DNA of 64,000 bases, from the NCBI RefSeq assembly GCF_054482595.1, contig NZ_CM137008.1. The stretch is one strand, 5' to 3'. Both the position numbers and the translations under genes were made by a program. Positions 3,902 to 59,827 of this stretch are shown here, piece after piece (positions within the stretch are counted from its first letter, which is position 1; every line of letters begins with the position of its first letter). The notes beneath the pieces were generated by a model. The model ran no database searches, was not told the origin of the DNA, and saw nothing but the letters and a program-made list of their open reading frames with translations.

Positions 3902-6900
3902 TTATTTCCGTACCCGATGTCGGTGCAGCCACATCAGCTTATACGCCGCCGGGATAATAAACAGCGACAGCAAAGGTGCGGTGATCATGCCGCCAATCAT
4001 CGGTGCGGCGATCCGGCTCATCACCTCTGACCCTGCTCCTGTTCCCCACAGAATCGGCAGCAGACCAGCGATAATCACCGCCACCGTCATCGCTTTCGGG
4101 CGCACGCGCAGTACCGCGCCGTGATACAACGCCTCATCCAGCTTCTGCTCACTGAATGTTTGCGGATTATTCAACGACGGCTCGGCCTCTATGGCGTGAC
4201 GTAAATACATCAGCATCACCACGCCAAATTCGGCGGCGACCCCGGCAAGGGCAATAAAGCCAGTACCCGTCGCCACGGAAAGATGAAAGCCCATCCACCA
4301 CAGCAACCAGATGCCGCCCACCAGCGCAAACGGTACGCTGCTGATAATCAGCAACGCTTCGCCCACCCGACGGAATGCCAGATACAACAGCACGAAGATG
4401 ATCATCAGTGTCATCGGCACCATGAGTTTCAGCTTATGGTTGGCGCGCTCCAGTAGCTCGAACTGCCCGGAGAATGCCACGCTGGTGCCCGGTTTTAACT
4501 GCACTTTTTCAGCTATCGCTTTTTGCAAATCGTGAACCACCGACACCATGTCACGATCGCGGGCATCGATATAAATCCAGCTCGTCGGGCGCGCATTCTC
4601 GGTTTTCAGCATCGACGGTCCGGTAGAGACTTTAACGTCGGCCACGTCTGCCAGGGTGATTTGCTGCTTCATCGGCGTCAGGATCGGCAACTGGCGCAGT
4701 GCCTGCGGACTATCGCGCCAGCTTTGCGGATAACGCAGATTAATGGGATAACGGGCAATCCCTTCCACCGTTTCGCCAACCATCGCCCCGCCCACCGCAG
4801 AAGTCACAAACAACTGCACATCCGCCACCGTCATACCGTAACGCGCGGCTTTTTCACGGTTAATCTCAACGTTGATATAGCGCCCACCTTCCAGACGCTC
4901 GGCAAGCGCAGAAGCCACGCCTGGTACCGTTCGTGCCACCTCTTCAATTTGCTCCGCCATCGCGTCGATATCCGCCAGCACAGTGCCGGAAACTTTAATG
5001 CCGATGGGGCTTTTAATGCCAGTCGAGAGCATATCGATACGGTTACGAATTGGCGGCACCCACAGATTCGCCAGCCCCGGCAGCCGCACGGTGTTATCCA
5101 GTTCCTCAATGATTTTGTCCATCGTCATGCCAGGCCGCCACTGATCCTGCGGCTTAAGCTGGATGGTCGTTTCTACCATCTCCAGCGGAGCAGAATCGGT
5201 GGCGGTTTCCGCTTTCCCGGTTTTGCCAAATACCCGCGCCACTTCAGGTACGCTCATAATTAGCTTGTCGGTTTTTTGCAGCATACTCGCCGCCTCTGCT
5301 GCGGAAATCCCCGGCAGCGTCGATGGCATATACAACAGGTCGCCTTCATTGATCTGCGGTAAAAATTCCCCGCCAACTTTATTGAGCGGCCAGAGAACCG
5401 TCAGCACCGAAAGCGCTGCCACCAACAGCGTGGTTTTCGGCCAGTGCAGTACTTTCAGCAACAGCGGATGATAAACACGAATCAAAAAGCGATTGAGCGG
5501 GTTACTGCTTTCCGGCGGAATTTTGCCACGGATCCAGTAACCCATCAGGATAGGGATCACTACGATCGCCAGCAGCGCCGCACCCGCCATCGCATAGGTT
5601 TTAGTGAACGCCAGCGGGCCAAACAGACGCCCTTCCTGCCCTTCCAGGGTGAAGATCGGGATAAACGACAACGTGATAATCAGCAGACTGATAAACAGCG
5701 CCGGCCCCACTTCAACAGACGCATCGGTGATCACCTGCCAGCGCGTTTTATTATCCAGCGTGGCGTCAGGATGCTGGTGCTGCCACTCTTCCAGCCGTTT
5801 ATGTGCATTTTCGATCATGACGATAGCGGCATCGACCATCGCCCCGACGGCAATCGCAATGCCGCCCAACGACATAATATTGGCATTCAGTCCCTGGAAG
5901 TGCATGACAATAAAAGCAATACACAACCCCAGCGGCAACGAAATAATCGCCACCAGCGCCGAGCGCACATGCCAGAGAAACAGCGCACAGACTACCGCCA
6001 CCACAATAAACTCTTCCAGCAACTTGCCGCTGAGGTTGTCGATGGCGCGGTCAATGAGCTGGCTGCGATCGTATGTTGTAACTATCTCCACGCCTTCCGG
6101 CAGACTACTTTTCAGCGTTTCCAGTTTGTCCTTCACGGCGGCGATCACTTCTCGGGCGTTTTTGCCGGATCGCAGGATCACCACCCCGCCCGCCACTTCA
6201 CCTTCGCCATTCAGTTCGGCAATGCCCCGGCGCATCTCCGGGCCAATCTGGACCTTCGCAACATCACGCAGATAAACGGGCACGCCATTTTCACTGGCTT
6301 TTAAAACGATGTGATTAAAGTCGTCGAGCGTTTGCAGATAGCCGCTGGCGCGCACCATATATTCCGCTTCCGCCAGTTCGATCGACGAACCGCCCGCTTC
6401 CTGGTTTGAAGCATCCAGCGCGCTTTTTACTTCGGCTAGACTGATGCCATATTGCGCCAGGCGCTGGGGATCGATAACCACCTGATACTCTTTCACCACG
6501 CCGCCCACCGACGCCACTTCCGCAACGTCAGGGATGGTTTTTAGCTCATATTTGAGAAACCAGTCCTGCAATGAGCGTAAATCGGCCAGATCGTGCTTAC
6601 CGCTGCGATCCACCAGTGCATATTCATAGATCCAGCCAACACCCGTGGCATCTGGTCCCAGCTCGGCGCTGACTCCCGCAGGCAGCTTACCCTGTACCTG
6701 GTTGAGGTACTCCAGCACCCGCGAACGCGCCCAGTACGGATCGGTACCATCTTCGAAAATGACATACACATAAGAGTCTCCAAACTGCGAGAAACCGCGC
6801 ACAGTCTTCGCGCCAGGCACCGACAACATGGTGGTGGTTAGCGGATAAGTCACCTGATTTTCAACGATTTGCGGTGCCTGACCGGGATAGCTGGTTTTAA

Positions 6901-7045
6901 TAATCACCTGCACATCGGAGAGATCCGGCAGCGCATCCACTGGCGTGTTAATGATGGTCCAGGTGCCCCAGATGCTCAGAAACAACGCGCCCATCAGCAC
7001 CAAAAAACGGTTCGCCACCGAGCGACGAATAATCCATTCAATCAT
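3902..7045 (-). CDS. cusA: Cu(I)/Ag(I) efflux RND (HME) inner-membrane pump
   Basis: 1047-aa ORF recognised as CusA. It is last in the cusCFBA gene order. Confidence 0.97.
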
Positions 7046-12455: not shown

Positions 12456-14693
12456 GTGGACTGGCTTCTTGATGTTTTTGCTACCTGGCTCTACGGCTTA
12501 AAAGTAATCGCGATAACGTTAGCGGTCATCATGTTCATCAGCGGGCTGGACGATTTTTTTATTGATGTCGTCTACTGGGTACGCCGCATTAAACGCAAGT
12601 TGAGTGTTTATCGCCGCTACCCGCGAATGAGTTACCGCGAACTGTATAAACCAGATGAAAAACCGTTAGCGATTATGGTTCCGGCGTGGAATGAAACGGG
12701 CGTCATCGGCAATATGGCCGAGCTGGCGGCGACCACGCTCGACTACGAAAACTATCATATCTTTGTTGGCACCTACCCCAACGACCCGGACACTCAGCGT
12801 GATGTTGACGAAGTGTGCGCTCGCTTCCCGAATGTGCATAAGGTAGTCTGCGCGCGTCCTGGCCCCACCAGCAAAGCTGACTGTCTGAACAACGTGCTGG
12901 ACGCCATCACCCAATTTGAGCGTAGCGCCAATTTCGCTTTTGCTGGTTTTATTCTGCATGACGCCGAAGACGTAATTTCACCGATGGAGTTGCGTCTGTT
13001 CAACTATCTGGTCGAGCGTAAAGATCTGATTCAGATCCCGGTGTATCCGTTTGAACGCGAATGGACGCACTTCACCAGCATGACTTACATTGATGAGTTT
13101 TCAGAGCTGCATGGCAAAGATGTTCCGGTGCGTGAAGCCCTCGCCGGACAAGTGCCCAGCGCAGGCGTCGGCACCTGTTTCAGCCGCCGCGCCGTGACCG
13201 CACTGTTAGCTGACGGTGACGGTATTGCTTTCGACGTGCAGAGTCTTACTGAAGATTACGACATTGGCTTCCGCCTGAAAGAAAAAGGTATGACGGAAAT
13301 TTTTGTCCGTTTTCCGGTGGTGGACGAAGCCAAAGAACGCGAACAGCGTAAATTTTTACAGCACGCACGGACATCAAACATGATCTGCGTGCGCGAATAT
13401 TTCCCCGATACCTTTTCGACTGCGGTTCGACAAAAATCCCGCTGGATCATCGGCATTGTTTTCCAGGGCTTTAAAACCCATAAATGGACCTCCAGCCTGA
13501 CGCTGAACTACTTTCTCTGGCGCGACCGCAAAGGGGCAATCAGTAACTTTGTCAGCTTCCTCGCGATGCTGGTGATGATCCAGCTTTTGCTATTGCTGGC
13601 GTATGAAAGTTTGTGACCCGATGCCTGGCATTTCCTTTCTATTTTTAGCGGCAGCGCATGGTTAATGACCCTGCTGTGGCTAAACTTTGGCTTGATGGTT
13701 AACCGCATTGTGCAGCGGGTGATTTTTGTCACTGGCTACTACGGCCTCACGCAGGGCCTGCTTTCCGTCCTGCGTCTTTTCTGGGGCAACCTGATTAACT
13801 TTATGGCTAACTGGCGCGCGCTGAAACAGGTTCTTCAGCACGGCGATCCGCGTCGCGTGGCGTGGGATAAAACAACGCATGACTTCCCCAGCGTGACTGG
13901 CGATACCCGCTCGTTGCGCCCGTTAGGTCAAATTCTGCTGGAAAATCAGGTCATCACTGAAGAACAACTCGATACAGCATTGCGTAATCGCGTCGAAGGT
14001 CTACGCCTGGGCGGTTCAATGCTGATGCAGGGGCTGATTAGCGCCGAGCAACTGGCACAGGCGCTGACAGAGCAAAACAGCGTGGCGTGGGAGTCGATCG
14101 ATGCCTGGCAGATCCCTGCCTCGCTGATTGCCGAAATGCCAGCCTCCGTAGCGCTGCATTATGCAGTACTGCCGCTGCGTCTGGAAAATGATGAGTTAAT
14201 TGTCGGCAGTGAAGATGGTATTGACCCGGTTTCGCTGGCGGCCCTGACGCGTAAAGTCGGACGCAAAGTGCGTTACGTCATTGTTCTGCGGGGACAAATT
14301 GTCACGGGGTTACGTCACTGGTATGCACGCCGACGCGGTCACGATCCGCGGGCAATGTTGTACAATGCGGTTCAGCATCAGTGGCTCACGGAACAGCAGG
14401 CCGGTGAAATCTGGCGGCAATATGTGCCGCATCAGTTCCTGTTCGCCGAAATACTGACCACGCTCGGTCATATTAATCGTTCAGCAATTAACGTGTTGTT
14501 ATTGCGCCATGAACGCAGTTCTCTGCCGCTCGGCAAGTTTTTGGTCACCGAAGGCGTTATCAGCCAGGAAACGTTGGATCGCGTCCTGACAATTCAACGC
14601 GAATTACAAGTTTCGATGCAATCACTATTACTCAAAGCAGGTTTAAACACAGAACAGGTTGCGCAACTGGAGTCCGAAAATGAAGGAGAATAA
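12456..14693 (+). pseudogene. nfrB: nfrB (c-di-GMP-dependent GT2 exopolysaccharide synthase / phage N4 receptor component) interrupted by one in-frame TGA at 13614-13616
   Basis: Track ORFs 12456..13616 and 13665..14693 are in the same frame (the offset of 1209 is 3x403). The 16 intervening codons (PDAWHFLSIFSGSAWL) are open. The N-terminal part has GT2 motifs (HDAED, QKSRW); the C-terminal part has MshEN-type motifs. Confidence 0.9.
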
Positions 14694-17652
14694 CCTTAAT
14701 CGCGTCATCGGATGGTCTGGTTTACTGCTGACGTCTTTATTGAGTACCAGCGCACTCGCAGACAATATCGGCACCAGCGCAGAAGAGCTGGGGCTGAGCG
14801 ATTATCGCCATTTTGTTATTTATCCCCGTCTCGATAAGGCGCTGAAGGCACAGAAAAATAACGACGAAGCAACCGCCATCCGCGAATTTGAATATATACA
14901 CCAGCAGGTGCCGGATAATATTCCGCTGACTTTATACCTTGCGGAAGCCTATCGCCATTTTGGTCATGATGACCGGGCGCGGCTGTTGCTTGAGGATCAA
15001 CTGAAACGTCACCCAGGAGATGCCCGACTTGAGCGCAGTCTGGCGGCTATTCCAGTTGAAGTGAAAAGCGTTACGACAGTTGAAGAACTGCTTGCCCAGC
15101 AAAAAGCGTGCGATGCTGCGCCGACCCTGCGTTGTCGCAGTGAAGTCGGGCAGAATGCCCTGCGGCTGGCACAGTTACCTGTCGCCAGAGCGCAACTGAA
15201 CGATGCGACGTTTGCTGCATCGCCGGAAGGAAAAACGCTGCGAACCGATCTGCTGCAACGGGCAATCTACCTGAAACAATGGTCCCAGGCAGATACGCTA
15301 TACAATGAAGCACGCCAGCAGAACACATTAAGCGCGGCAGAACGCCGTCAGTGGTTTGACGTGCTTCTTGCCGGGCAGCTGGACGATCGGATCCTGGCAC
15401 TGCAATCACAGGGGATCTTCACCGATCCTCAGTCATATATTACTTACGCGACCGCGCTGGCTTATCGTGGCGAAAAAGCATGCCTCCAGCATTATCTCAT
15501 TGAAAATAAGCCGCTGTTTACCACGGACGCACAAGAGAAAAGTTGGCTCTATCTGTTATCTAAATACAGCGCCAACCCCGTTCAGGCATTGGCGAATTAT
15601 ACGGTGCAGTTTGCCGATAACCGCCAGTATGTTGTTGGCGCGACGCTACCGGTGCTGTTAAAAGAAGGTCAGTACGACGCAGCGCAAAAACTGCTCGCCA
15701 CCCTCCCCGCCAATGAAATGCTTGAGGAGCGTTATGCTGTCAGCGTGGCGACCCGTAACAAGGCTGAAGCTCTGCGTCTGGCACGCTTGCTGTATCAGCA
15801 AGAACCGGCAAATCTTACCCGCCTGGATCAACTAACCTGGCAACTGATGCAGAACGAGCAGTCACGGGAAGCTGCCGATTTATTGCTGCAACGCTATCCT
15901 TTCCAGGGCGATGCGCGTATCAGCCAGACTTTAATGGCGCGACTGGCGTCTCTGCTGGAAAGTCATCCTTACCTGGCAACGCCGGCGAAGGTGGCGATTT
16001 TATCGAAACCCTTACCGCTGGCGGAGCAACGTCAGTGGCAAAGTCAGTTGCCGGGTATTGCAGATAATTGCCCGGCAATAGTTCGCTTGCTGGGCGATAT
16101 GTCGCCTTCCTACGATGCCGCCGCCTGGAACCGTCTGGCAAAGTGTTATCGGGACACGCTACCCGGTGTGGCGTTGTATGCATGGCTTCAGGCCGAACAA
16201 CGACAACCGAACGCCTGGCAACATCGTGCGGTAGCCTATCAGGCGTATCAGGTTGAGGACTACGCCACCGCACTGGCGGCCTGGCAGAAAATCAGTCTTC
16301 ACGACATGAGCAATGAGGATCTGCTTGCTGCTGCCAATACCGCCCAGGCGGCAGGAAATGGTGCGGCTCGCGATCGCTGGCTACAACAGGCAGAACAACG
16401 TGGACTGGGAAGCAATGCCCTCTACTGGTGGCTGCATGCGCAACGTTACATTCCTGGTCAGCCGGAACTCGCACTGAACGATCTCACGCGCTCAATCAAT
16501 ATTGCGCCTTCTGCCAACGCTTACGTTGCGCGGGCGACAATTTATCGCCAACGTCATAATGTCCCGGCCGCGGTGAGTGATTTGCGCGCCGCGCTGGAAC
16601 TGGAACCGAATAATAGCAACACCCAGGCAGCGCTTGGTTACGCCTTGTGGGATAGCGGTGATATCGCACAGTCGCGGGAAATGCTCGAACAGGCGCATAA
16701 AGGGCTTCCGGACGATCCGGCACTGATCCGACAACTGGCCTATGTGAACCAGCGTCTGGATGACATGCCTGCGACGCAGCACTACGCCCGGCTGGTGATT
16801 GATGACATTGATAATCAGGCGCTAATAACCCCATTGACGCCAGAGCAAAATCAACAACGCTTCAATTTCCGCCGTTTGCATGAGGAGGTCGGTCGCCGCT
16901 GGACGTTCAGTTTCGATTCTTCTATCGGCTTGCGTTCCGGCGCAATGAGTACCGCTAACAATAATGTCGGCGGCGCAGCGCCAGGGAAAAGCTATCGTAG
17001 CTACGGGCAACTGGAAGCCGAATACCGCATCGGACGCAATATGCTGCTGGAAGGCGACCTGCTCTCAGTTTATAGCCGCGTCTTTGCCGATACCGGAGAA
17101 AACGGGGTGATGATGCCGGTGAAAAATCCGATGTCCGGCACCGGTCTACGCTGGAAGCCGCTGCGCGATCAGATCTTTTTCCTCGCCGTCGAACAGCAGT
17201 TGCCGCTGAACGGGCAAAATGGCGCATCCGATACCATGCTGCGCGCCAGCGCCTCATTCTTTAATGGCGGCAAATACAGCGACGAATGGCACCCGAACGG
17301 TTCAGGCTGGTTTGCCCAAAACCTGTACCTCGATGCGGCGCAATATATCCGCCAGGATATTCAGGCGTGGACGGCAGATTATCGCGTCAGCTGGCATCAG
17401 AAGGTAGCTAACGGACAGACTATTGAGCCTTACGCTCACGTTCAGGACAACGGCTATCGTGATAAAGGCACTCAGGGCGCGCAGCTTGGCGGTGTCGGGG
17501 TCCGCTGGAATATTTGGACCGGCGAGACGCACTACGACGCCTGGCCGCACAAAGTCAGTCTCGGCGTCGAGTATCAACATACCTTTAAGGCGATTAATCA
17601 ACGTAACGGAGAGCGCAACAACGCGTTTCTCACCATTGGAGTGCACTGGTAA
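14680..17652 (+). CDS. nfrA: outer-membrane TPR-containing protein, phage N4 adsorption protein A
   Basis: ATG 14680 (MKENNLNRVIGWSGLLL..., with a signal peptide) gives 990 aa and overlaps the nfrB end by 14 nt. Recognised as NfrA. Confidence 0.94.
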   Translation: MKENNLNRVIGWSGLLLTSLLSTSALADNIGTSAEELGLSDYRHFVIYPRLDKALKAQKNNDEATAIREFEYIHQQVPDNIPLTLYLAEAYRHFGHDDRARLLLEDQLKRHPGDARLERSLAAIPVEVKSVTTVEELLAQQKACDAAPTLRCRSEVGQNALRLAQLPVARAQLNDATFAASPEGKTLRTDLLQRAIYLKQWSQADTLYNEARQQNTLSAAERRQWFDVLLAGQLDDRILALQSQGIFTDPQSYITYATALAYRGEKACLQHYLIENKPLFTTDAQEKSWLYLLSKYSANPVQALANYTVQFADNRQYVVGATLPVLLKEGQYDAAQKLLATLPANEMLEERYAVSVATRNKAEALRLARLLYQQEPANLTRLDQLTWQLMQNEQSREAADLLLQRYPFQGDARISQTLMARLASLLESHPYLATPAKVAILSKPLPLAEQRQWQSQLPGIADNCPAIVRLLGDMSPSYDAAAWNRLAKCYRDTLPGVALYAWLQAEQRQPNAWQHRAVAYQAYQVEDYATALAAWQKISLHDMSNEDLLAAANTAQAAGNGAARDRWLQQAEQRGLGSNALYWWLHAQRYIPGQPELALNDLTRSINIAPSANAYVARATIYRQRHNVPAAVSDLRAALELEPNNSNTQAALGYALWDSGDIAQSREMLEQAHKGLPDDPALIRQLAYVNQRLDDMPATQHYARLVIDDIDNQALITPLTPEQNQQRFNFRRLHEEVGRRWTFSFDSSIGLRSGAMSTANNNVGGAAPGKSYRSYGQLEAEYRIGRNMLLEGDLLSVYSRVFADTGENGVMMPVKNPMSGTGLRWKPLRDQIFFLAVEQQLPLNGQNGASDTMLRASASFFNGGKYSDEWHPNGSGWFAQNLYLDAAQYIRQDIQAWTADYRVSWHQKVANGQTIEPYAHVQDNGYRDKGTQGAQLGGVGVRWNIWTGETHYDAWPHKVSLGVEYQHTFKAINQRNGERNNAFLTIGVHW

Positions 17653-18543
17653 ATGCGTAAGTTCATTTTCGTATTGCTGACACTGCTTTTGGTCAGCCCT
17701 TTTTCCTTTGCGATGAAAGGTATTATCTGGCAACCACAAAACCGAGATAGTCAGGTTACCGATACCCAGTGGCAGGGGCTGATGAGTCAGTTACGTTTGC
17801 AAGGCTTCGATACCCTGGTTTTGCAATGGACCCGTTACGGCGATGCATTTACCCAGCCAGAACAGCGCACGTTATTGTTTAAGCGTGCCGCAGCTGCGCA
17901 ACAGGCTGGCCTGAAGCTGATTGTCGGGCTGAACGCCGATCCGGAATTTTTTATGCACCAGAAACAGTCGTCCGCAGCGCTGGAAAGCTATCTTAATCGC
18001 CTGCTGGCTGCCGATCTCCAGCAAGCCAGATTATGGAGCGCCGCGCCTGGCATAACGCCGGATGGCTGGTACATCAGCGCGGAAATTGACGACCTGAACT
18101 GGCGCAGCGAAGCCGCCCGTCAGCCTTTGCTAACATGGTTAAACAACGCGCAGCGGCTGATTAGCGATGTTTCAGCAAAACCGGTTTATATCAGTAGTTT
18201 TTTCGCCGGAAACATGTCGCCCGATGGCTATCGCCAACTGCTGGAACACGTTAAAGCAACCGGCGTTAATGTCTGGGTACAGGATGGCAGCGGCGTGGAT
18301 AAACTGACCGCTGAACAGCGTGAACGTTATCTACAGGCCAGCGCCGATTGCCAAAGATCCGCCCCAGCAAGCGGCATTGTTTATGAACTGTTTGTCGCCG
18401 GCAAAGGCAAAACCTTTACAGCGAAACCGAAACCGGACGCAGAAATTGCCTCGCTGTTAGCGAAACGTTCCTCTTGCGGTAAAGACACTCTCTATTTCTC
18501 TCTGCGCTATTTGCCCGTCGCGCACGGCATTCTCGAGTATTAA
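17653..18543 (+). CDS. ybcH: periplasmic protein YbcH (third gene of the nfrBA-ybcH operon)
   Basis: The ATG immediately follows the nfrA TAA. The product is 296 aa with a signal peptide, MRKFIFVLLTLLLVSPFSFA. Confidence 0.9.
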   Translation: MRKFIFVLLTLLLVSPFSFAMKGIIWQPQNRDSQVTDTQWQGLMSQLRLQGFDTLVLQWTRYGDAFTQPEQRTLLFKRAAAAQQAGLKLIVGLNADPEFFMHQKQSSAALESYLNRLLAADLQQARLWSAAPGITPDGWYISAEIDDLNWRSEAARQPLLTWLNNAQRLISDVSAKPVYISSFFAGNMSPDGYRQLLEHVKATGVNVWVQDGSGVDKLTAEQRERYLQASADCQRSAPASGIVYELFVAGKGKTFTAKPKPDAEIASLLAKRSSCGKDTLYFSLRYLPVAHGILEY

Positions 18544-22032: not shown

Positions 22033-24642
22033 TTATGAGCCAGAATGTGTGCAAACTGCCGAAATAACAGTGACGGCTTGCTGTAAGCTTTGCTTCGGCA
22101 ATACATAGTGCGCAATGCAGCGTGAGTTCGCGCCGTCTCCCCACTGAACCAGTAATTCACCAGACAATGGCGCACCACTTAAATAAACTTGCCCGTCATC
22201 ACCCACCATACTGGTTATTCCGGTACTGTTTTCCCGTACCAGTGATCCAAACGGCACCGGTTTTCCGCCCTGGGTAACGGTAATGAGCGCCCGCACGCCT
22301 ATGCGGGTATCAAAATTGGCACGAACCAACGCGCCTTGCGTCGGCACAACGCTGCTAATATTTTTTTCAACATCGATGGAATTCCCCATCGTATTGGTAT
22401 CAAGCGCGATACGGTTATACCGATAAACCGTGGCATACGGCATCACCGCATAGCCGCGCCAGTCGGTTAAAATGCCAGTTTGATTTTCAATGCGTACACC
22501 GCCTGCGCCAGGCGCTTTAATCAAAACATTGGTATCCCCTAAAGGCTGGCTCAGCGTTATGCCATTTTCATGCCCGACCACACCGCCAGACAGCTGCCAG
22601 TTAACGTCATGTTGATCGCGGTCGTAGTTATACCCGACCCCCAGCGTACCGTAAGCGGCCTGCCAGTTTGCCGTGGCGCTGCCCGTATACCCATTATTCG
22701 AGGTATCACCCTGGCTTACGTGATAACTCAGGTTGTGGCCTTCCAGTAAGGTCCCACCTACACCTGCCAGCCAGCTATTTTGCCCGTTGCTGTTACGGTT
22801 GGCGTTAAAGGAGGCATAAGCGCGGTCGAGCGCATTTTCCCGGGTGTAGCGACGTTTGGTCAGAACATTGAAAGGCACTGAAACATTAAGTCCGACAATA
22901 CGTTCGTTATCGGGGATCCCTACAGATTCATTCCACGAAAATGAGAGCGAATAACTGATGCCAACCCAGCTGCTGGTATACCCCACCTGATACCACGTAT
23001 CTGAATCCGAAGTATTCCAGTATTTTTGATGGGTACCAGAAATATAAAGCGAGCCAAAGTCATTAAGTGATTGTGAAATATTTAACTGCAAACGGTCTTT
23101 ACGGCTAAAGCGTAAATTGTGGTAATTCACGATTATCGGTTCATCGCGATGCTCACCGTCGTAATCGTAATCATATTCGTACCCCTCCATTCGACGATAC
23201 GCAACATCATCAAGGGTATAAAAACCTTGTGTCGAATAGCGGTAACCCATTAACTGAAAATTGGTGCCGAAGGTGTTCATCGATTTCGCATAGAGGAAGC
23301 GAATAGAATCCCCCTCATGACGACTATCGTCGGCTAACTGACTGCGCGCATGGGTCACATCCAGCGACACTGCCCCCCAGTTCCCGAGGTTGCGCCCCAG
23401 TCCTAATAAAAAGGCGGTGTAATTGGCAGATAATTGCGTCCCGCCGTAGGCAGTAAATTCCTGTGGTAAACCACCGAGTGCCGTGCCCTGAAAAAAGAAA
23501 GGTGATGATTGCTGACTATTACCGCTACGAAAATCGCCCGCCGTCAGGTCAAATTTGAAACGCCCTTCGCGTTGTAAAATCGGCACTGTTGAATACGGAA
23601 TTGTGTAATTCTGCTGATTGCCATCGCGCTCGTCGATGGTGACATCCAGATCGCCATTTGAAGATGTCGGGTGCAAATCTGTAATTTCAAAAGCACCGGG
23701 GGAAACATAGCTTTGATAGATAATAAAACCATTTTGCCGAATCGTTAGCTGGGCCGCCGTACGGGCAATCCCACGTACCGTTGGGGCAAACCCTTGCTGG
23801 CTATCAGGATACATATTATCGGAAGAATAAAGCCGTACACCACGAAATCCAACACCATCGAAAATATCACTTCCTGTATTGCCGTCTCCCATTACCAGTT
23901 CACTTTTCAGCGGAATAATGGCGCGCTGTACCCAGGTGCCAATATTATTCCACTGTTCTGAATGATATCCATTTCCGCGAAAATAGTTCCAGGAACCATT
24001 GTTGCGTAAACGCCACGGGCCAATATTAATCCCGCTGAGCTCACTAAAAAAATAGCTATCGTTACCATTACCTCTGTTACCAGTGAAATTATAATTCAGG
24101 AGTAAAGCAGGAATACCTTCATCCCACTATTCAGGCGGAATGTAACCGTGAGCACTACTCAACAACGCTATCTGAGGAATAGTGATGTTCAGGCGCATCG
24201 CTGCAAAATCAAAGTTAATTGTGGCATCAGGTACAGCTTTCAGTAAATTGATGCATTTATTGTTTTGCTGCTGGGCTAACTCGGGAAATGCACTGCTATT
24301 AAGGCCAATTCGTTCAAGGAGTACCTGGTTAAAACAGGGCATTAACCCACCTGATTTATCACCTGTATTTTCTGTTGTCGATTCAAATACGATATCCTGT
24401 GAACCAATGAACTCATCATTACGCCAGAGATCCACCCGATACACGCCCGCAGGTTGATGATTACCTCTCTCAAAGCGCGATAAATCAGCAACGGATGTGC
24501 CATTCTCTAATAAAAATGCCGGGTTGAAATAACTTTCCGCATAGCTTAAAAAGGAGGGTAAAATGGCAAGAGATGAATAACAAATTCCGGCCAGACACCA
24601 GGTATACCTCTGCGGAATATCCGTAGTAGTGGGTATTTTCAT
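22033..24642 (-). pseudogene. sfmD: sfmD fimbrial outer-membrane usher interrupted by one in-frame TAG at 24127-24129
   Basis: Track ORFs 24127..24642 and 22033..23892 are in the same frame (the offset of 750 is 3x250). My translation of 23893..24126 is open ([27 protein letters not shown]...KSELV). The total is about 868 codons, the size of a FimD-family usher. Confidence 0.9.
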
Positions 24643-55152: not shown

Positions 55153-55644
55153 TTACTCTGCACAAGCATCAGGCAATCCAGCTCCAATATTTGTTATAAA
55201 ATAATGCGTAACATTAATTTCACCAACAAAAAAAAGATTTACGCTATCCCCTTGCCCTGGTATTTTACCATATTTACACCACACTTTTTTTGTATCTGGA
55301 TCATTCTTTGATACGATTTTCGCCACTTGTTCCCTGGCCCTCACCGTCAATGTTTTCTTAAACCTCCCCCCATCATCGATTGTTAGGGAAAAATAAGAAA
55401 AAAAATAATCATCTTCTACATTTGTGGATATTGATATATCCACCGCTACGTGCGGAAAAAAATCTGGGAGCCATGTAAAAACTCCATCATTTTCTGGTAT
55501 TGCCATATAGTTTATGTAATGCTTACTTACAAGAGATTCATCTTTGTGTAAATAAAGATAAGTAGTCACGCATAAAAAAACAACGATTATAATAGCAAAA
55601 ATAAATATTACCATCTTTGAGATGTTACTTGAGATAGCCACCAT
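55153..55644 (-). CDS. putative Rhs-toxin immunity protein, N-terminally membrane-anchored
   Basis: 163-aa ORF overlapping the rhs 3-prime end by 20 nt (alternative ATG at 55614). It has a hydrophobic N-terminus [22 protein letters not shown] and shares the AT-rich composition of the rhs tip. I recognise no family. Confidence 0.7.
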
Positions 55645-58600
55645 CTTGTAAAGCCTTTATCGTTTTTTTATGCTCTGGATTAATATAATCAATACATCTA
55701 TTTGAGCAATCTTGTGTTAATGGACATGTCAACCCATGTTCATTTACAGCCAAGTCTTTTTTATTATCTTCAATCATCTCAGAATGGGATAACTTTACTT
55801 TTCTGCCGTACATACCGAACATATTTAACCCGTAATCTCTAATCTCTTTTTCATAACCCAGCCCTTTCGCCGATCGGCTAACACCAGCGTCATTTAATTT
55901 AGACACTCGACAAAATGCCATACAATGGAAAAATTGATCAGTCCCACCTAAATTTAATCTCTTCATATCATCATAAGTATCAGATAATATATCCCATGCT
56001 CTTTGATGGTTTAGTTGTTCTTTTTTTCGCATTAACGCTACATCTGCAGGACTTAACCCTAATGGATCAATACCATTCACCGGATACGCATACAGACTCC
56101 ATCCCCCCGCCAGCCCAATCGGGTCCTGAGTAATATATCGTCCCAGCAACGGATTGTAGTACCGGTTCCGGTTATAATACAGCCCCGACTCCTCATCATA
56201 CTGCTGCCCTGGCAGACGGTACGGCTGATACACATGATGCGGGTTCTCCTCATTAAGCTGGTTGCCCCATTCATCATATTCCGCGCTCCACGCCGTATTG
56301 CCGTCTTCGCTGATAAGCGCCAGCGGCAGTCCCCGGTGGTCGCAGTGATAAAGATGAGCTTTTCGCGCCGGTGTGTATTCCGGCTCCACCTGTCTGGCCA
56401 GTTGCTCCACCGTCAGCCCGCACTGCGCAAGCCACGCCCGGCTTTCACTGCTCACGCGGTCTGCCCGGATTTCTTCCTCCAGTCTGTCCAGCAGCCGCAC
56501 CAGTTCAGCCGGAAATACCACGCCGTGCCCGTCCTCGCTCCCTTCCTGCTGCAGCTTCTCCGCCAGGCTGCGGCGCTGCGCTTTCTCCCGCTCGCCGTTG
56601 TCTGTTTCGATGCGGATGAGCGGCGCGAAGCTCCCCGGCTGATATACCGTCTGGATACGCGTGGTGTCGGTCTGTACCGTCGTCAGCCGGTCGCCGTCCC
56701 ACCCGTACCACGTCACCTCCGGTTTCCGCGACAGCGACATCCATCCCGTCAGGTCACGCTCGCGACGCCACACCCGTTTCCCTGTCCGGCGACCCAGCGG
56801 GTCGTAAAGGTATCGGCTCTCGACCAGCGGCTCCTCATATTGGATACGGATGTAATGGACCAGGCGGTGCAGGCTGTCGTAATGGTAGTGATGGGTGCGC
56901 TCGTCGTCCGTCCGTATCACACCCGCCGGGATGCGGTCCGTCTTCTCCGTCAGTCTGCCGTATTCATCGTAGTGGTAAACATAGTGCGCATCCTTCGCGA
57001 TGCGGTTATCCGGCCACACTGTGAGGGTACTGTCCGGGTGCAGCTCCGGGTCCGGCAGGCGGTTTCCCGCCGGGTCGGTGGCATACGGGATGCGGATGTC
57101 CAGGTCCGGTGCGAGGGTACGCACGCTCTCCAGCCTGCCCGTGGCGCTGTAGCCGTATTCCCGCGTCTGTCGCGGGCCGCTGATGCGCACCAGGTCGCCG
57201 TTGTCATTCCACCCGTAGTCACGGTCATACACCAGGCTGTTCAGGTGCTGGCTCTGTAACTGGCCTGCGGGGGTGTATGTGCTGGTCAGTTTATATGCGG
57301 CATTACTGCCTGCCATGCTGCCAAAGCTGCGCACCGTCTCCCGGTGCATGCGGTCGCGCGTGTACTCCAGCAGCGGCGTGTCGCCAAGCTTCATGCCCGC
57401 CAGATAACCGCTGCCGTAGGTCAGCCACTCCACCGGCGGCAGGCTGTCCGGCGTGACGCGGTTTGCCAGCCCCTGTTCGTTGTAGGCGTGTGTTGTCTCA
57501 TGCTGCCACAGCAGTTCCCCCGTCTCCGGGTTCTCCACCGTCTGCCGTTCGCCGGTCAGGCGGCCCTTATCGTCGTAGCCGTAGTGGACAGCGACACGGT
57601 GGCCTTCGCTCAGGTGGCTGATGTCTGTCAGCCAGCCGTGGTCATCATACTGCCACTGCTCTGCCGGTTCGCCGTTCACCGTGCGGTGAGTGATACGGTC
57701 CGATTCATCGTAGTACCAGAGGGTGACAAGCCCCTCATCTTCACTCTGCGTGAGTTTTCCGGTCAGGTCATAATGATAACGCTGCGTCCGCCCGTCAAAG
57801 CCGCCCTGCTGTACCAACCGGTCCAGCGCATCGTAGCTGAAGTCGCTGTGGCTGCCGTTCTCGTTAGTCAGACTGATGACACGTCCGGCAGCATCGTACT
57901 CCATACTGCGCGTCAGCCCGCCCTGCGTGGTGCTGACCGCCTTTCCCCACGCATCGTACTGTGTCTCGCTCCGGTTGCCGTCCGGGGTGATAACGGCAGT
58001 CAGGTCGCCTGCGGCGTTGTACTCATACTGCGTTTCACGGCCCTGTGCGTCTTTCACCGAGGTTAACCGGCCACGGTTGTCATAGTGGCGGTAAAGGCTG
58101 ATACCTTCCTCGCGGTGAACCGCCGTCATCTGGCCGAAGCGGTCGTATTCATAGCGGGTCTGGTAGCCCGAGCAGTCGGTGAACGCCAGCAACTGACCGT
58201 AGCGGCTCCACGTCATCTGCCGGGTGCTGCCCGTCGCATCTGTTGTCGTGGCCGGTAATTCACTGTGCGCATCATCATAGCGGTAGCGTACTGTCTCCCC
58301 GCTGCGCGATGTCTCCGTTACCAGCCTGTCCAGTTCATCATATGCCCGGCGGCTCTCCAGCCCGTCCGGGGACACCACCGCCGTCAGCTGGTTCCCGTCG
58401 TTATAGTAAAATTTCGTCTCCCGCCCGTCCGGTGTGGTGATGTCCGTGATATCGCCGGACACCACATTCAGACCGTACTCTGTCCGCCGTCCCGCCGCGT
58501 CCGTCTGCGCCGTGAGCCTTCCTGCCGCGTCATACCCGCTGTGCGTGACGCTGCCATCCGCCAGTTCTTTTTTCACCACCCGTTTCAGCCCGCCTTCACC

Positions 58601-59827
58601 TTCTGTATGCAGCACCTCACGCCGGTTCAGGCTGTCGGTGACGGTGATGCGGTCCTGCTCATACTGGTAGCGGTAACTCAGGCCTGCCGGGTTAAGCTGC
58701 TCCACCACCCGCCCGGTATCGTCGTAGCGGTAGCGCATCTCCGGCCTTCCCGCATAACGGTGCCCCACCATCCGGCCCGGGTGCTGCGCGTCATACGTGA
58801 AAGCGCGCACCTGTGTCCCGCTGCGGTCATATACCGCCAGCAGTTCACCGGCTTCCGTATACGTGTACCGCGCCAGTGGCGCTCCGGGCAGGCTCTCCGG
58901 GTATGCCGGGTCGTGCATCAGCCACACCGCCAAAAGGCGGATACCCCTGTCGGGGCCGTATTCGGTACCGGGCAGTGTGTCGGGGAACGCTGAGGCTGAG
59001 AGAGGGCGGGGTGTGTCAGGGGAAGATAAGGAAGCGGTGCGCTGTTTACGGGCCTCTTCCGCACGCTGCGCCTGCGTGGTCAGCACCAGACGGAACTCCC
59101 GCCCGGCACCGTCCGTCACGCCGGTGATTTCCCCGGCCAGGTCACCGGCGGCCTCACGCCGGTACGTCAGCGTCCGCCCGAAGCGGTCTGCCAGCCCGGT
59201 AAGCACCCGGTACGGCGGCAGCGGCGCTGGCAGTACGTCCTCAGCACCCGGCACCAGCTCTGACCACCCCAGTATCCACCACGGCCCCTGTGCGCTGTTG
59301 GTCGCCAGGTAAAGATGCGGGCTTAACCGGATATCCGGCGGCAGCGACGCCCACAGCCGTGCCAGCGTATGGCCGTCCGGCTGCGTTGCCTTACCGCCAC
59401 GCACCAGCCACAGGGACTCGCTGCGGCTGTACACCGCCTCACCCGGCAGCAGCGGCTCAAAGTGAATGCTCCGTCCGCCGTTGTCGTTGAGTACCAGTGC
59501 ATCATCGCGTATCTGTAAGCGGATATCAGAAGGCGCTTTCCAGCCGGGGCCAAAAATCCCCACCGGTGCAGGCGTCTTCGTCCGGTAGCTGCTGTAGGTG
59601 CGGGAGAGAATGAACGGCAGCGGGCCGGGCAGCGCAAGGTCCGTCTCGCCGGGCAGCACCTTCGCCCCCAGCAGCGGATTTACCGGGTTGCCCGAAGTCA
59701 TCCCGCCCGGACACACCGAGCACGCCACGCCAGTTGGCGCGCCAATTCTTACACCTGCCGAACCCTGGACAATGGGACCGCCATACTGAGTCATATCTCC
59801 CTGACGCGCCGCTGGTTTTCCGCTCAT
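55625..59827 (-). CDS. rhsD: Rhs-family polymorphic toxin (PAAR-like N-terminus, YD-repeat shell, DPLGL cleavage motif, variable C-terminal toxin domain)
   Basis: 1400-aa ORF with N-terminus [11 protein letters not shown]..., many YD repeats and core end ...[13 protein letters not shown] (56054-56068), followed by a 142-aa AT-rich tip. It lies between ybbP and mnmH, the K-12 rhsD position, so the symbol is positional only. Confidence 0.93.

Follow-up and report, generated by a model that had tools for sequence, protein, structure and literature searches.

Phage N4 depends on NfrB, the synthase of a sugar polymer. The activity of NfrB as a glycosyltransferase (GT) and its binding of c-di-GMP are both required for plating of phage N4 (PMC8669469, PMC8669472). 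In the 64,000-nucleotide stretch of E. coli DNA analyzed here (the window), the nfrB reading frame is interrupted by a stop codon, and an earlier note on this DNA proposed that the resulting allele may be leaky rather than null. The locus thus raises the question of whether the stop codon is genuine, where it falls in the protein, and whether any NfrB function is likely to remain.

A single in-frame stop codon interrupts nfrB

The interrupted gene has the following parts.

12456..14693, + strand: nfrB reading frame, interrupted; RefSeq records of near-identical strains list it as a pseudogene ('internal stop')
12456..13616, + strand: ORF of the truncated product, 386 aa, with the N-terminal transmembrane (TM) segment, the GT2 domain and the first linker TM helix
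13614..13616, + strand: the internal stop, TGA as codon 387 in place of the ancestral Trp codon TGG; the next base is C
13665..14693, + strand: residual downstream ORF, 342 aa, with its ATG at codon 404 inside the second TM helix and without a Shine-Dalgarno sequence

Upon retranslation, the frame consists of 745 codons and a terminal TAA, and codon 387 is its sole internal stop, as the earlier note had stated. The GTG start codon at 12456 and the end of the gene agree with those that RefSeq gives for nfrB in Santai, a near-identical genome. In the list of ORFs, the frame yields two pieces, 12456-13616 (386 aa) and 13665-14693 (342 aa). An unbroken polypeptide in which the GT domain, two TM helices and the MshEN region follow each other is not encoded by nfrB of the window, the frame being closed by the TGA at codon 387. 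This stop lies in-frame in an otherwise conserved ORF, close relatives have a sense codon at its position, and the lesion is repeated in independent assemblies. As judged from its sequence, the window locus is an nfrB pseudogene and not a functional member of the NfrB proteins. RefSeq labels nfrB in near-identical records 'pseudo, internal stop'; the lesion (W387*) is already flagged by public annotation, and premature stops in nfrB are already in the literature (PMC8669472).

The TGA is genuine and derived from a tryptophan codon

The nfrB stretch is matched in 5,092 of 5,426 complete E. coli genomes. The variant base was followed in the 5,426 genomes with a probe of 55 bases, in which each 28-mer seed covers the A. 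With this probe, the A at codon 387 was found in only nine genomes, of which four are near-identical to the window and five are divergent. The near-identical carriers are Santai O157:H16 (duck), SM107 (human), AHM21C2872I (indoor environment) and W619 (pig). The window and Santai differ at five positions in 64 kb, and the window is accordingly placed by its sequence in the Santai-like O157:H16 clade and not in K-12. The exact 386-aa product is present on 142 public contigs (NCBI, ENA, Logan). Moreover, the Logan assembly of the SRA run SRR23529590 has the TGA split together with a SNP that is otherwise private to the window.

These data bear on the trivial explanation that TGG is the true codon and that the TGA arose through faulty sequencing or assembly. 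Such an error could yield a single-base substitution like this one; no other support for it was found. By contrast, the same base is present in nine independently assembled complete genomes from two lineages, the TGA is on the 142 contigs from three sources, and the independent, read-derived SRR23529590 assembly shares even the private SNP. An error is extremely improbable, and we rejected it on these grounds.

The closest intact alleles, i.e. those of XH990 and APEC37, have only two nfrB differences from the window, one at nt 1161 (A versus G, i.e. TGA versus TGG) and one at nt 1612 (the private SNP). TGG is present at codon 387 in all six examined alleles that are intact at this codon and that come from four distinct backgrounds; among the more distant alleles, it is present in those of a Swiss calf isolate, of O157:H7 TR01 and of the backgrounds of loci L008 and L009. 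The alignment to other E. coli nfrB alleles, which had been proposed as a check, confirms TGG at this position, and the nearest intact alleles bear out the claim that the TGA is one transition away from TGG. The comparison identifies TGG (Trp) as the ancestral codon and TGA as derived. Among the 5,426 complete genomes, the stop was found in nine only.

The same stop codon in a second lineage

The other five carriers of the TGA are 19SZHZ713Rt, CUPS SST 5/1, CUPS05, XPF_3 and YDMW_2. In this lineage, ISAs1 is present upstream of nfrB where the window has cusS, and nfrB differs from that of the window at 37 positions; among these are SNPs that flank the TGA at a distance of 24 nt on its 5' side and 30 nt on its 3' side. 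Recombination that carried one TGA from one lineage to the other was ruled out, since the flanking SNPs at -24 and +30 nt leave a shared tract of <54 bp. For this reason, the TGA at codon 387 is best read as having arisen twice, independently. There are 259 single-base routes to a stop codon in nfrB, of which 78 are transitions, and with 10-20 independent nonsense events the probability of a coincidence at some site is 0.45-0.93. The recurrence, i.e. the homoplasy at codon 387, is therefore unremarkable. We also considered a mutational hotspot at W387 and rejected it because the codon is not a Dcm (CCWGG) site, unlike that of the nonsense allele W391* described below.

At two loci of the second lineage (L004 and L005; NZ_CP080070 and NZ_CP184992), nfrB lies at 368-2605 with the same TGA at codon 387.

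The stop falls in a loop between two transmembrane helices

The motifs and segments of NfrB map to the window as follows.

12957..12971, + strand: HDAED, residues 168-172; in K-12, N4 cannot plate without D169 (PMC8669469)
13248..13256, + strand: TED motif, residues 265-267; D267 is essential (PMC8669469)
13431..13445, + strand: QKSRW, the QxxRW motif of processive GT2 enzymes, residues 326-330; W330 is essential (PMC8669469)
13539..13610, + strand: first linker TM helix, about residues 362-385, from hydropathy and the two linker TM helices described in PMC8669469
13629..13694, + strand: second linker TM helix, about residues 392-413, lost by the truncation; approximate bounds from the sequence and the soluble construct 414-745 (PMC8669469)
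13920..13991, + strand: MshEN 24-residue motif 1, residues 489-512, PLGQILLENQVITEEQLDTALRNR, including L490 and G491 (PMC8669469, PMC8669472)
14004..14075, + strand: MshEN 24-residue motif 2, residues 517-540, RLGGSMLMQGLISAEQLAQALTEQ, including L518, G519 and L537 (PMC8669469, PMC8669472)
14067..14067, + strand: near-private SNP, A here and G in all compared alleles, A538T in MshEN motif 2
14526..14597, + strand: third MshEN-like 24-mer, residues 691-714, in the C-terminal domain of unknown function

In Pfam, the upstream piece matches Glyco_trans_2_3 (GT2) at 3e-41 and the downstream piece MshEN at 1.7e-14. The positions of HDAED, TED and QKSRW agree with the published K-12 numbering (PMC8669469). 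As had been noted before, the upstream 386 codons retain the signatures of a processive GT2 enzyme, i.e. HDAED at residues 168-172, QKSRW at residues 326-330 and the GT2 domain itself.

NfrB has two linker TM helices, and residues 414-745 have been purified as a soluble domain (Junkermeier and Hengge, PMC8669469); an AlphaFold model can be found in PMC8669472. By hydropathy, the strongest hydrophobic segment past the GT domain comprises residues 359-388. Based on this segment, the two published helices and the soluble 414-745 construct, codon 387 is assigned to the predicted 6-residue loop (LWPDAW) that joins the two linker helices. The truncated protein would therefore also lack one membrane helix. 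The stop is ~100 residues upstream of the tandem c-di-GMP-binding motifs, both of which are encoded in the window but 3' of the stop. Thus, the proposal that the TGA separates the GT from the c-di-GMP-sensing domain holds in so far as the GT2 signatures are upstream and the c-di-GMP-binding region is downstream; however, the stop does not mark a clean domain border but falls in the inter-helix loop. Similarly, of the two MshEN motifs that the earlier note had placed downstream, one is motif 2 (residues 517-540), whereas the other is the third repeat (residues 691-714), and motif 1 (residues 489-512) had been missed.

The substitution A538T adjoins L537, a residue that contacts c-di-GMP. Apart from the window, only one public contig (SRR23529590) has the identical downstream ORF with the SNP at 14067. 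This SNP fits relaxed constraint after the stop, or it is a plain strain marker.

Readthrough of the stop codon is unlikely to restore NfrB

If tRNA-Trp read UGA-C often enough, full-length NfrB with the wild-type sequence would be made, giving rise to some N4 glycan receptor (NGR) and some N4 infection; in that case, W387* would not be null but hypomorphic or heterogeneous. The claim that TGA followed by C is a weak termination context is documented in the literature (PMC5289835). In K-12 reporters, Trp-tRNA(Trp) reads through about 2% of UGA stops at 37 C and about 4% at 25 C (PMC10570021), and readthrough would bring back the ancestral Trp. However, high UGA leakiness has been tied to the weak RF2 with Thr246 that is specific to K-12. 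Residue 246 is Ala in the RF2 of other E. coli lineages, and with this variant the native products of UGA readthrough that are visible in K-12 could not be detected (PMC5373646). The window strain is of the Santai-like O157:H16 clade, not K-12. Furthermore, the nfr operon is lowly expressed (PMC8669469), and a share at the percent level would amount to very little protein. There is no stimulatory structure 3' of the stop, and the stop is not conserved (9/5,426 genomes). Taken together, a functionally relevant leak is unlikely; traces of NfrB with the wild-type sequence may still be made.

Programmed readthrough would show further hallmarks. The weak termination context is present, i.e. UGA followed by C (PMC5289835), but the stop is not conserved among orthologs, being found in 9/5,426 genomes, with TGG seen in other alleles. 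In the downstream 60 nt, neither a stimulatory RNA structure nor a SECIS was detected (fold z = -1.4): 14 of 200 shuffled sequences fold as well as this segment, and the only hairpin includes the UGA itself. Recoding of the UGA as selenocysteine would be favored by the identity of the codon and by nothing else; against it are the ancestral Trp codon TGG and the downstream 60 nt, which have no significant structure or SECIS-type hairpin after the UGA. The non-significant fold and the TGG ancestry led us to rule out selenocysteine as well as stimulated readthrough, and the probability of selenocysteine is close to nil.

A related reading is that the UGA-C at W387 is a selected, low-output and condition-dependent allele. 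Readthrough of UGA by tRNA-Trp varies with temperature and cAMP. In few cells or under few conditions, it would restore the wild-type protein, while most cells would be without the phage receptor and the polymer would be kept in reserve. On this view, the stop would have arisen independently in two lineages at exactly codon 387 because this leaky site was selected. We consider this reading very unlikely.

The two pieces are unlikely to form a split synthase

Because the 342-aa ORF with all MshEN motifs stays open downstream of the stop and gene callers predict it as a separate gene, the GT fragment (residues 1-386) could be imagined to combine with a C-terminal protein, translated on its own from Met404, into an active c-di-GMP-regulated synthase. 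However, neither the ATG at 13665 nor the other in-frame start codons are preceded by a Shine-Dalgarno sequence, and on this basis an internal restart was ruled out. A search for an internal promoter or terminator gave promoter-like and terminator-like hits at chance level. Met404 is inside the second linker TM helix, and the fragment would consequently be without a proper membrane anchor. Finally, the closest relatives carry the fused gene, one base apart from the interrupted one, and NfrB homologs in other bacteria have been described as fused GT-MshEN proteins (PMC8669469). A functional split is highly improbable.

Predicted loss of NfrB activity and of the N4 receptor

K-12 becomes resistant to N4 when nfrB is deleted. 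NfrB with D169A, D267A or W330A, which are substitutions in the GT active site, does not complement the deletion, and with G491L, which affects c-di-GMP binding, N4 infection is abolished or strongly reduced (PMC8669469, PMC8669472). Based on these data, we suggest the following model for the window allele. A G-to-A transition would have turned Trp387 (TGG) into TGA, and translation would stop past the first of the two linker TM helices. The 386-aa fragment would keep the catalytic GT2 motifs and be without the second helix, the tandem MshEN motifs and the C-terminal domain. Because NfrB needs c-di-GMP binding for activity, the fragment is expected to be inactive and to make no NGR. Cells with this allele should resist N4 and other NGR-dependent phages despite intact nfrA and ybcH. 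Loss of NfrB activity and of the polymer, as well as N4 resistance, are predicted here from K-12 genetics, and we conclude that the window very probably carries a recent, lineage-restricted loss-of-function allele of nfrB.

The remainder of the operon was described as intact in the earlier note, and both ORFs (990 aa and 296 aa) are indeed whole.

14680..17652, + strand: nfrA, 990 aa, intact; overlaps the end of nfrB by 14 nt; GGAG 7 nt upstream of the ATG; Pfam NfrA_C and TPR
17653..18543, + strand: ybcH, 296 aa, DUF4434, intact

The window has the nfrB-nfrA-ybcH operon with the 14-nt overlap between nfrB and nfrA (nfrA from 14680, nfrB to 14693; PMC8669469). With the stop at codon 387, translational coupling through this overlap is lost. 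Rho-dependent polarity on nfrA is possible; the untranslated stretch of 1,063 nt has a modest C-over-G bias, with a maximum of 1.58 in 78-nt windows and 274 C and 296 G overall. In this lineage, nfrA and ybcH are without decay, which fits a young lesion and would fit residual function too.

Strains of the clade are predicted to lack NGR and would resist N4-like, Vequintavirinae and phi92-like phages, which are NGR-dependent according to Sellner et al. The predicted loss of NGR is of relevance when typing or therapeutic phages are selected. W387* may have reached its present frequency through phage pressure, because a cost (e.g. on motility) was relieved, or by drift.

W387* in the context of other natural nfrB lesions

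Sellner et al. 2021 reported IS elements, deletions and premature stops in nfrB or dgcJ of E. coli, e.g. in all E. coli B strains (PMC8669472), and this remark was the only one found in the literature on nfrB together with pseudogenes or premature stops. Those natural disruptions resemble W387* in the affected gene, in the premature-stop lesion and in the expected loss of NGR and N4 resistance. However, Sellner et al. 2021 (PMC8669472) name no W387*, which is placed here in the O157:H16 Santai-like clade, with a second origin in an unrelated background. The K-12 laboratory nfrB null and point mutants (PMC8669469, PMC8669472), in which the GT domain or c-di-GMP binding is removed or inactivated, are the basis for the prediction of N4 resistance; they are engineered deletions and missense mutants, whereas W387* is a natural truncation at the TM linker.

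W387* is one of many natural nfrB knock-outs in E. coli. The nonsense allele Q376* (CAG to TAG) is present in 94 of 5,426 complete E. coli genomes, and the protein collection lists its downstream ORF in 2,353 index blocks. It is similar to W387* in that the nonsense mutation, 11 codons upstream, lies in the same linker TM region, the 342-aa ORF downstream is left over as well, and one gene name is used for both in the annotation; it differs in the codon, in the stop (TAG) and in the genomic background, and it is ~10x commoner. For W344*, a 343-aa product that ends directly before W344 is present on 123 contigs. W391* (TGG to TAG) sits exactly at a CCTGG Dcm site. Dcm methylation sites are classic deamination hotspots. 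In one assembly, nfrB has lost 1 bp at nt 98, ISVsa5 is inserted in nfrB of 88COLEC (NZ_CP070906), nfrA is frameshifted in APEC37 (NZ_CP127303), and 334 of the 5,426 complete E. coli genomes gave no nfrB match.

Among the loci that we compared, Q376* was seen at L008, L011 and L012 and W391* at L009. In strain 2824 (NZ_CM128562), a 'hypothetical protein' is annotated at the place expected for nfrA; 88COLEC, APEC37 and strain 2824 belong to the same ≥99.9% nfrB clade and have differing operon lesions. In the Q376* lineage (L010 and L011, nfrA region 4016-6989), nfrA is further split into two to three ORFs in some assemblies. This splitting may be secondary decay of the operon after loss of nfrB; L010 also has other frameshifts and may just be an error-rich assembly.

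A single nonsense SNP has also switched off another c-di-GMP-controlled exopolysaccharide system, in that the premature stop in bcsQ of E. coli K-12 silences cellulose synthesis. The bcsQ case differs from nfrB W387* in that the stop lies in another operon and does not truncate the synthase itself, its effect being mostly a polar one on the synthase gene that follows.

The W387* allele is an ordinary nonsense pseudogene, and the lesion on its own adds nothing new on mechanism. The additions made here are modest and consist of the placement of the stop in the TM linker, the correction of the motifs, the second origin, the allelic series and a reason to doubt leakiness outside K-12. The many independent nfrB knock-outs in natural E. 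coli (W344*, Q376*, W387* twice, W391*, IS insertions and gene absence) offer a broader perspective: if loss-of-function events were counted systematically and compared with what neutrality predicts, it could become apparent whether nfrB is lost under phage pressure or because the polymer is costly.

Other lesions and differences in the window

Within 10 kb of nfrB, a second gene for a surface structure is knocked out. The gene for the fimbrial usher SfmD (sfmD; 22033-24642, - strand) has an internal TAG at codon 172 (stop at 24127-24129, context ...GYIPPE*WDEG...) and is also flagged 'internal stop' in the near-identical Santai RefSeq record. The core protein of an RHS element is annotated in Santai at about 55625-59827 (- strand); a small ORF lies downstream of it, and there are gene remnants nearby (ylbG, partial). 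Beside this element are the SNPs at 55589 and 55641, which make up two of the five differences between the window and Santai.
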